In this document: in pieces, positions 16,945-18,907 of the stretch
How the letters are laid out: each line of letters starts with the position of its first letter
Position numbering within the stretch: position 1 is the stretch's first letter
Source: Eledone cirrhosa
Taxonomy: Eukaryota
Reading direction: 5' to 3'
Assembly: GCA_964016885.1 (NCBI GenBank)
Contig: OZ024740.1
Coordinates: 207,576,001-207,640,000 of the forward strand
Length of the DNA: 64,000 nt
Position numbers and translations under genes: made by a program
Notes under the pieces: generated by a model
What the model saw: the letters and a program-made list of their open reading frames with translations, nothing else
What the model was told of the DNA's origin: nothing
Database searches by the model: none

Positions 16945-18907
16945 AGATAATTTAATATATCAACTAACATAAGCGCACAGATGCACGCCCATGCCAGCAA
17001 ATACACAGGTTATGTCATAGTACCTAGGTGGTTCAATGCAGGAGAATGCAGAACAATAATATAAAGGACGTAAAATAAGAAAATATTTTTTTTAAAAAAT
17101 TTAAAAAAAATTTTTTACTTAAATTTTCACTCCAACTAATTAGTTTCTGCAATGGGATAAAGACAGTTACGTAATCCAACTGTCGAGAATTCATTGCGTC
17201 ATCAGGAAGTCTATTCTCAGTTAAGTCTCCAGGCAATGCGCGGACACTGGCGGCTCATATAAAAATAATAATAATTCGGTAGATCGAACAGCTTGCGAGG
17301 ACTGGATTCTATGTACCGAAATTCTCACTGCTTTAAGTCAAATGGCCGATTCTAAAGAATCAATCACGTGACACAGAGGCTAGTTAGAAGGAATGGGATG
17401 GTAAGATGACTGACGCCTACTAACACCCCAAAAAAAAATTTTTTTTTAGAAGTGGTTTTGACAAGTTTGCTCGACAAATCAGTGATTTGGAGATAAATAT
17501 AGATAATTTAATATATCAACTAACATAAGCGCACAGATGCACGCCCATGCCAGCAAATACACAGGTTATGTCATAGTACCTAGGTGGTTCAATGCAGGAG
17601 AATGCAGAACAATAATATAAAGGACGTAAAATAAGAAAATATTTTTTTAAAAAAATTTAAAAAAAATTTTTTTCTTACTTAAATTTTCACTCCAACTAAT
17701 TAGTTTCTGCAATGGGATAAAGACAGTTACGTAATCCAACTGTCGAGAATTCATTGCGTCATCAGGAAGTCTATTCTCAGTTAAGTCTCCAGGCAATGCG
17801 CGGACACTGGCGGCTCATATAAAAATAATAATAATTCGGTAGATCGAACAGCTTGCGAGGACTGGATTCTATGTACCGAAATTCTCACTGCTTCAAGTCA
17901 AATGGCCGATTCTAAAGAATCAATCACGTGACACAGAGGCTAGTTAGAAGGAATGGGATGGTAAGATGACTGACGCCTAGTAACACCCCAAAAAAAAATT
18001 TTTTTTAGAAGTGGTTTTGACAAGTTTGCTCGACAAATCAGTGATTTGGAGATAAATATAGATAATTTAATATATCAACTAACATAAGCGCACAGATGCA
18101 CGCCCATGCCAGCAAATACACAGGTTATGTCATAGTACCTAGGTGGTTCAATGCAGGAGAATGCAGAACAATGATATAAAGGACGTAAAATAAGAAAATA
18201 TTTTTTTTAAAAAATTTAAAAAAAATTTTTTTCTTACTTAAATTTTCACTCCAACTAATTAGTTTCTGCAATGGGATAAAGACAGTTACGTAATCCAACT
18301 GTCGATTTTTTAAAAAAAATATTTTCTTATTTTACGTCCTTTATATTATTGTTCTGCATTCTCCTGCATTGAACCACCTAGGTACTATGACATAACCTGT
18401 GTATTTGCTGGCATGGGCGTGCATCTGTGCGCTTATGTTAGTTGATATATTAAATTATCTATATTTATCTCCAAATCACTGATTTGTCGAGCAAACTTGT
18501 CAAAACCACTTCTAAAAAAAAATTTTTTTTTGGGGTGTTAGTAGGCGTCAGTCATCTTACCATCCCATTCCTTCTAACTAGCCTCTGTGTCACGTGATTG
18601 ATTCTTTAGAATCGGCCATTTGACTTGAAGCAGTGAGAATTTCGGTACATAGAATCCAGTCCTCGCAAGCTGTTCGATCTACCGAATTATTATTATTTTT
18701 ATATGAGCCGCCAGTGTCCGCGCATTGCCTGGAGACTTAACTGAGAATAGACTTCCTGATGACGCAATGAATTCTCGACAGTTGGATTACGTAACTGTCT
18801 TTATCCCATTGCAGAAACTAATTAGTTGGAGTGAAAATTTAAGTAAGAAAAAAATTTTTTTTTTTTAAATTTTTTTAAAAAAATATTTTCTTATTTTACG
18901 TCCTTTA
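16945..18907. mobile_element. Retrozyme-like ~556-559 bp tandem unit: 2.4 minus-sense copies plus 1.07 inverted plus-sense copies, in (TA)n
   Basis: AGATAATTTAATATATCAAC starts at 16945, 17501 and 18060. The array breaks at 18305 and continues as a reverse complement to 18907. No long ORF; one HHR per unit. Confidence 0.85.
18751..18832 (+). ncRNA. Type I hammerhead ribozyme (copies at 17129-17210 and 17689-17770 on minus; partial 18248-18305)
   Basis: Stem I ACTTC/GGAGT; CTGATGA 18756-18762; stem II GCAATG/CATTGC capped by hairpin GACAGTT/AACTGTC; GAAAC; palindromic AACTAATTAGTT; GUU triplet. Confidence 0.75.

Follow-up and report, generated by a model that had tools for sequence, protein, structure and literature searches.

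How did two near-identical arms of a repeat with no coding sequence, both bearing hammerhead motifs, come to lie head-to-head in a (TA)n microsatellite of Eledone cirrhosa, and from which RNA were they copied? The repeat occupies positions 16946-18905 of the 64,000-nt stretch of DNA analysed here (contig OZ024740.1 of assembly GCA_964016885.1, positions 207,576,001 to 207,640,000 of the forward strand; hereafter the window) and appears as a young insertion. We read the array as a hammerhead retrozyme mobilized by a Penelope-like element (PLE), and give this reading a probability of about 0.8 whatever the template was. The fuller proposal, in which a PLE-mobilized non-autonomous unit was copied into (TA)n from a linear, partly uncleaved multimer, has in our view about an even chance of being right.

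The original prediction described 2.4 head-to-tail copies plus an inverted 1.07 copy, and our alignment agrees, with 2.44 units in the direct arm and 1.07 in the inverted arm (Table 1). The outermost unambiguous bases of the array are 16946 and 18905; with its TA overlap the inverted arm spans 18305-18910 (606 nt), and it has a period of its own of 564 nt. When the hammerhead strand is taken as RNA sense, both arms point outward from 18305. As had been noted, the arms exceed the unit in length, lie in different registers (both their starts and their ends differ) and have (TA)n on both flanks. The near-identity of the units was also borne out, with 98.6-99.4% identity to unit 2 and three whole units, while the accompanying claim of one hammerhead in each holds for the whole units and not for the partial one, which has only the 3' half. 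The tract variant T7A7 is found in unit 2 and, in register, in the matching pass of the inverted arm, with T8A6 in the other three copies. This is one slippage-prone site only, and the remaining differences among the copies are all private.

Table 1. Positions of the array, its predicted hammerheads and other larger elements in the window.
Feature	Position	Strand	Remarks
Left (TA)n target tract, interrupted	16803-16945	.	last 5 nt (16941-16945) common to tract and unit
Direct arm, 2.44 units	16946-18305	-	RNA sense on minus strand, 3' end at left flank
Unit 1, 556 nt	16945-17500	-	3'-most in RNA sense
Unit 2, 559 nt	17501-18059	-	reference for identity figures
Partial unit 3, 246 nt	18060-18305	-	5' truncation falls within hammerhead stem II, 53 nt upstream of predicted cut
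Head-to-head junction	18305	.	single base common to both arms
Inverted arm, 1.07 units	18305-18905	+	5' start 42 nt downstream of predicted cut, 3' end at right flank
Right (TA)n target tract, (TA)18	18906-18941	.	18906-18910 common to tract and unit
Predicted type I hammerhead fold, unit 1	17129-17210	-	core 17205; predicted cut between 17134 and 17133
Predicted type I hammerhead fold, unit 2	17689-17770	-	core 17765; predicted cut between 17694 and 17693
Predicted hammerhead 3' half, partial unit	18248-18305	-	without CUGAUGA; predicted cut site 18253
Predicted type I hammerhead fold, inverted arm	18751-18832	+	core 18756; GUU cut after 18827
5'-truncated Hydra-like PLE	41-4017		single hammerhead core at 3829, no tandem terminal repeat
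Adjacent ORF-less element, 1.13 x 482 nt	18942-19486	+	core 19339; unrelated sequence, separate insertion into same (TA)n tract
1.65 x 568-nt unit plus inverted arm	21782-22960		between (TA)n tracts
1.46 x 433-nt unit plus inverted arm	39758-40655		hammerhead 40001, minus; short filler at junction
1.39 x 605-nt unit	43440-44281		hammerhead-like core boxes, weak stem I; fold-back element 42998-43417 precedes

The unit has no ORF, as had been stated: the longest frame inside the array is 73 codons from stop to stop (53 codons from an ATG), and a tblastn search of the window with the ORF of the window's PLE gave no match other than the ORF itself and none in the array. Each arm terminates at its 3' end in a TATAT of the unit that passes into the target (TA)n, with a 5-nt overlap of alternating TA. 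Four TATAT-type runs occur in the unit and such an overlap is expected at 4.5% of positions, which gives P ~0.002 for both ends jointly. Measured from the predicted hammerhead cut, the 3' ends lie ~190 and ~80 nt downstream. Predicted cut sites are crossed without a seam three times in the direct arm and once in the inverted arm, so the template there was either uncut or re-ligated.

Within the window this unit is found at one locus only. The whole unit or part of it is contained in 19 of 23 listed sequencing runs, a count that covers presence rather than copy number or ends. At least half of its words occur in 5 listed runs (2 studies, 3 organism labels), and a word share of at least 0.29 is reached in 10 listed rows from 6 studies; 9 rows with small shares were excluded from these counts. 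With the top study set aside, since it may be the source, one other study is left with 2 runs, at shares of 0.71 and 0.59. The listed holders include no RNA run, an outcome with no bearing on expression. The presence of the unit in further runs means that it is not private to this locus, and we regard the array as real, young and ordinary in kind.

Stem I is the open stem of the predicted hammerhead, which is therefore of type I. The motif has a 5-bp stem I, the CUGAUGA box, a C.A mismatch at 10.1-11.1, GAAA and a GUU cut site. Its stem II is built of 6 bp, an internal loop and a 7-bp distal hairpin (51 nt for the stem II region), and its stem III is a 12-nt palindrome (18816-18827 in the inverted arm). 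The array cores score 13 with a descriptor that was tuned after the motif had been seen; this score was reached by none of 2000 dinucleotide shuffles of the monomer, only one of which gave any match, and the descriptor has 6 matches in the real window and none in 20 shuffled windows. Rfam returned no match at the gathering threshold for the window; at E ≤ 10 it gave 15 rows, none of them a hammerhead family, and the miRNA rows in its output stem from the fold-back at the array junction.

Folded as a circle, the sense monomer (36% GC) is predicted to reach -134 kcal/mol (z -4.7 from 40 shuffles; z -2.5 for the antisense strand) with 64% of its bases paired. Stem II forms in this predicted circle with a probability of 0.85-1.0, the pair probability of stem I is at most 0.01, and the active hammerhead fold lies 4.6 kcal/mol above the optimum. 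We treat the self-cutting fold of the unit's RNA as a prediction throughout. The C.A mismatch and the GUU might be taken as marks of a dead ribozyme, but this was rejected since both traits appear usual in the Hydra hammerhead table. By our count of the Hydra rows in file S2 of PMC8557442, a mismatch at 10.1-11.1 is present in 15 of 26, and the cut follows U in 10 of 26. The C.A mismatch at this position is seen in one non-Hydra row of that file.

The sequence criterion for a non-LTR retrozyme in bioRxiv 10.64898/2026.07.22.740005 is at least two consecutive units, each with a whole type I fold, and units 1 and 2 have such predicted whole cores at 17205 and 17765. Judged by its sequence, the unit is thus a non-LTR retrozyme in that sense. 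It shares further traits of the class, as it has no coding capacity, a GC content below 50% and a self-paired predicted circular fold. A compact canonical hammerhead with contacts between loop 1 and loop 2 is not what we find (no Rfam match, long stem II, C.A at 10.1-11.1); the 2026 definition also admits minimal and PLE-type folds (bioRxiv 10.64898/2026.07.22.740005).

As described for animal non-LTR retrozymes (PMC7229834; bioRxiv 10.64898/2026.07.22.740005), the array consists of ORF-less tandem units of low GC with one type I hammerhead each and at least two consecutive whole units, and PLEs are present in the same genome. The unit of 559 nt is longer than the 170-400 nt given for invertebrate retrozymes in 2020 (PMC7229834) and falls within the range of 51-972 bp in bioRxiv 10.64898/2026.07.22.740005. 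Its predicted fold is of the PLE type with the long stem II region, in contrast to the compact canonical retrozyme motif, while the mussel retrozyme motifs are likewise described without most of the loop contacts. The words "inverted" and "microsatellite" are absent from the main text of PMC7229834. LTR retrozymes of plants, whose LTRs contain type III hammerheads, were excluded because the unit's hammerhead is of type I; they resemble the unit only as non-coding hammerhead retroelements, and differ also in having LTRs, a 4-bp target duplication and a Gypsy partner. In the mostly open-access literature on cephalopod retrozymes and Penelope we found no description of such a family. The array is a further member of a published class, and the circle model discussed below has likewise been published already.

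The array also carries the marks of a PLE insertion: a partial tandem, an inverted 5'-truncated copy at the 5' end, the head-to-head arrangement and a (TA)n target. Any target-site duplication would be hidden by the (TA)n itself. Partial tandems and inverted 5'-truncated copies at the 5' end are described for published PLE insertions (PMC8557442), head-to-head is the usual orientation of PLE inverted copies (PMC3846280), and (TA)n is targeted by the Hydra-clade PLEs as well as by the Naiad PLEs (PMC8557442). The resemblance to Hydra-clade PLEs (files S1 and S2 of PMC8557442) extends to a hammerhead near the 3' end with a 4-bp stem III, a mismatch at 10.1-11.1 and a GUU cut, and a Hydra-type core is recognized in the unit when it is compared by eye with the 26 rows that file S2 gives for Hydra. 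Stem III of the unit, ACUA/UAGU, is that of Penelope-1_HM (PMC8557442). The unit differs in its stem II insert of 37 nt, compared with loops of 3-10 nt in the Hydra table (PMC8557442), in having no RT-EN ORF and in that no sequence link to an autonomous family was found in the window. With no ORF for RT and GIY-YIG, the array is not an autonomous PLE, and the unit is in effect a non-autonomous PLE reduced to its terminal region. The mobilizing enzyme was probably the RT-endonuclease of a Hydra-clade PLE, a partner read from fold and target only, since the unit has no sequence match to the PLE of the window.

Another comparison is offered by the non-autonomous Chlamys elements, e.g., MRC1, which are PLE derivatives with multicopy head-to-tail insertions (PMC8557442). 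They are found in green algae, have (C)n or (CA)n as targets and belong to a clade mostly without hammerheads (PMC8557442), so head-to-tail arrays can form without a ribozyme.

The window itself contains a Hydra-like PLE. Its ORF (173-1864) is open for 563 codons. It carries the RT motif YRDD, a GIY-YIG-like motif at the C terminus and, as Hydra motifs, CxCX5C, CxxC and CxH, with no CCHH pattern. It falls into RT/GIY-YIG clusters at 0.96 (Atlas) and has 1119 homologs at E ≤ 1e-20, the best named of which is from Argonauta hians (41%). No Pfam family was found for the PLE-like frames 173-1864 and 63207-63809, and the classification as PLE consequently relies on motifs, Atlas and homologs. An inverted copy of the PLE's terminal region lies at 41-160, and a (TA)n-flanked palindrome at 54184-54631 is 86-91% alike to that region. 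A (TTTATT)51 array interrupts the 3' region of this PLE, and a fold-back hairpin of 24 bp (157-205) is located at the junction. Compared with this PLE and 15 other elements, the unit gave no match except one of 30 nt and low complexity.

Of 16 other elements selected from the window for comparison, four lack an ORF, exceed their unit length and are bounded by (TA)n (periods 482, 568, 433 and 605); an inverted arm like that of the array is present in two of these. The class is therefore real, and together with the PLE and the hammerhead fold-backs these elements make the anatomy of the array a common one here. The predicted hammerhead of the adjacent element 18942-19486 has a long stem II and a palindromic stem III as in the unit, with G-C at 10.1-11.1, and the 5' end of this element is 9-13 nt after the predicted cut. 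No convincing hammerhead was found in the element 21782-22960, where a possible decayed U3-A8 core lies at the junction. In the element 39758-40655 the inverted arm (40402-40655) has 9 private substitutions, whereas the tandem copies have 0 and 1; this arm therefore came from a second template. Three further copies of the 433-nt family (42695-42963, 44562-44640 and 44663-44916) start almost exactly at the predicted hammerhead cut. They probably go back to a single event that was copied again within a nested composite (42515-45166), and they hint at the use of cleaved linear RNA in vivo. Additional fragments of this family were seen by eye near 16461-16802 and 20080-20200.

According to the reading that we prefer, a tandem source locus would be read through into a multimeric RNA, in which slow hammerheads would leave most sites uncut. 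The PLE enzyme would nick both strands of the microsatellite, and each 3'-OH would pair with an internal TATAT 80-195 nt downstream of a hammerhead and prime cDNA synthesis. One cDNA would cover 2.44 units and the other 1.07, both stopping near a hammerhead, and the two cDNA ends would be joined head-to-head and then filled in.

Priming from both target ends is what we infer, and the window lends support through the second template of the inverted arm 40402-40655 and through the target overlaps counted below. A purified PLE cut and extended both strands in vitro and started inside the RNA, and the one PLE reconstituted in vitro mainly used unprocessed RNA as its substrate and still inserted mutants of the ribozyme (PMC11167929). 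Poseidon of Anolis (PAc) resembles the array in the cutting and extension of both strands of AT-rich DNA and in internal initiation downstream of the hammerhead (PMC11167929). PAc initiation needs no homology, whereas a 5-nt target overlap is present at both ends here, and initiation in vitro at non-homologous sites counts against priming by overlap (PMC11167929). Among the 10 arm 3' ends in the window with a known continuation, inspected by eye, at least 5 alternating bases overlap the target in 4 (P 0.002) and the 5-nt overlap is absent in 6. Classical L1 twin priming on one linear RNA would give abutting arms; it was rejected because the arms of the array overlap by more than one unit.

Was the template linear or a circle? 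The original prediction took the array as a rolling-circle signature, which is overstated. All that is seen can be accounted for just as well by a linear, partly uncleaved multimer. What stands of its proposal of cDNA made from a circular (or multimeric) RNA is the retrozyme-like RNA template longer than one unit; the circle is not shown, and a multimer fits as well or better. The locus cannot decide between the two templates, and weak clues favour the linear multimer. The inverted arm and the (TA)n flanks are generic PLE marks (PMC8557442; PMC3846280) and hence silent on a circle. A monomeric circle, formed by hammerhead cleavage and a host RtcB-type ligase and copied 2.44 and 1.07 times with strand displacement, is possible but on the unlikely side. 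It would fit the seamless crossing of the predicted cut sites, and mostly private differences among copies that are ~99% identical are what a circle predicts. The four other families that exceed their unit length, the stable predicted circular fold of the sense monomer and the palindromic stem III, which may allow dimeric cleavage, agree with it as well. Circular RNAs have been shown for coral, mussel and axolotl retrozymes (PMC7229834), and a circle was proposed as PLE template in 2014 (PMC4209133).

On the other side, PLE-type hammerheads cleave weakly (PMC4209133), only one of nine Xenopus dimers was cleaved in vitro (bioRxiv 10.64898/2026.07.22.740005), stem I is predicted to be unformed in the circle at the energetic cost given above, head-to-tail arrays also arise from the ribozyme-poor Chlamys derivatives (PMC8557442), and one variant is common to both arms, although T7A7 would also result from fold-back copying or gene conversion. 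The 5' ends speak against a circle too, since the RNA would already be paired to cDNA on a second lap and no stop near the cut would be expected. Of the five arms that exceed one unit and have a located core, four begin no more than 53 nt from the predicted cut (-53, +42, +9 to +13, and +13), while the fifth misses at about -180. The P of 0.007 for this clustering refers to a threshold chosen afterwards and to a count that omits 21782-22960, which has no located core, and takes 43440-44281 with its poor stem I as the miss. Not all 5' ends cluster near cuts, as the fold-backs 38393-38722 and 54184-54631 start ~125 nt upstream of theirs. Neither arm of the array ends exactly at a predicted cut, and a linear template would need three uncut hammerhead sites, which counts against it. 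More doubtful still is the reading that non-coding circular hammerhead RNAs of 430-605 nt form a whole class in this genome and are rolling-circle copied by a Hydra-type PLE enzyme from both (TA)n cut ends. Each end would then pair with an internal site by a few TA bases, in a telomerase-like manner, and could use a different RNA molecule. If true, the circle-templated PLE cycle put forward in 2014 would have left a direct fossil record in these insertions.

Explanations without a free-standing unit also have to be weighed. The array could be the 5'-truncated 3' end of an autonomous PLE with at least three tandem terminal repeats and the usual inverted copy, and the fold, which is PLE-type rather than canonical retrozyme type, arm 3' ends located 80-195 nt behind the hammerhead as in Hydra consensus sequences (PMC8557442), and the match of Xenopus retrozymes to pLTRs (bioRxiv 10.64898/2026.07.22.740005) are in line with this. 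We still find it unlikely, since the Hydra consensus sequences give one motif per strand (PMC8557442) and five unrelated families in 64 kb exceed the unit length without ORF sequence. As the PLE of the window contains only one hammerhead and lacks a tandem terminal repeat, the array is no simple 5' truncation of such a PLE, in keeping with the original prediction. Much less probable is that a monomer was inserted and that later DNA duplication or unequal exchange made the tandem and fold-back synthesis the inverted arm. The inverted arm does fall inside the direct arm's span, in register with it, and has its variant in common with unit 2, small fold-back hairpins occur in the window (such as the one in the PLE), and local amplification has been proposed (bioRxiv 10.64898/2026.07.22.740005). 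Yet exact head-to-tail units whose ends are non-integer can be seeded by a monomer only if it is already terminally redundant, the tandem and inverted copies are equally diverged, and another template gave rise to the inverted arm 40402-40655. Near-identical repeats in inverted orientation are a known class of artefact and the junction is known from the assembly sequence alone, so an assembly or library chimera (a fold-back read) was considered too. We find this most improbable, given the private substitutions and indels in the copies, the stop of both ends at TATAT, the recurrence of like anatomy in the window with arms diverged by 2-10%, and the presence of the unit in runs of other studies and organism labels.

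The link between retrozymes and PLEs has so far consisted of co-occurrence and of matches to terminal repeats in frogs. An ORF-less hammerhead multimer with full PLE marks beside a Hydra-like PLE gives independent support for this link. Whether the template is a circle or a linear multimer is an open point of PLE biology that can be tested by counting ends and ordered variants, and with five families longer than their unit in 64 kb the assembly probably has enough insertions to do so.

Several smaller elements were seen in the same window. Short fold-backs lie between or near (TA)n tracts at 21084-21299, 38393-38722, 54184-54631, 21400-21716, 31339-31611, 4296-5023 and 39190-39287, several of them, including the first two, with a hammerhead core in the arms, and such elements could be mis-annotated as MITEs. 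At 30676-31117 there is a head-to-head palindrome with arms 90% alike and, judged by eye, a tRNA-like head; at its 3' end a hammerhead core and stem II are cut off by (TA)n, and the element may have arisen by fusion of a SINE head to a PLE tail. No tRNA gene was detected in the window by ARAGORN. The open frame at 63207-63809 has a GIY-YIG-like motif of another PLE type, and other reverse-transcriptase fragments on the minus strand (55918-58081, 59092-59703 and 62546-63466) look LINE-like by eye. Two 439-nt tandem copies (96% alike) lie between (ATGT)n tracts at 58171-59069, where no hammerhead core was found. Long minisatellite arrays at 8584-14800 (24/48-nt periods) and 48233-52101 (32-nt period) are fully assembled. 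SINE-like repeats of ~200 nt occur at 6847-7054, 7568-7760, 24746-25231, 30281-30473, 33107-33332, 53769-53958 and 19551-19824, one of them as a 2.4-copy tandem.
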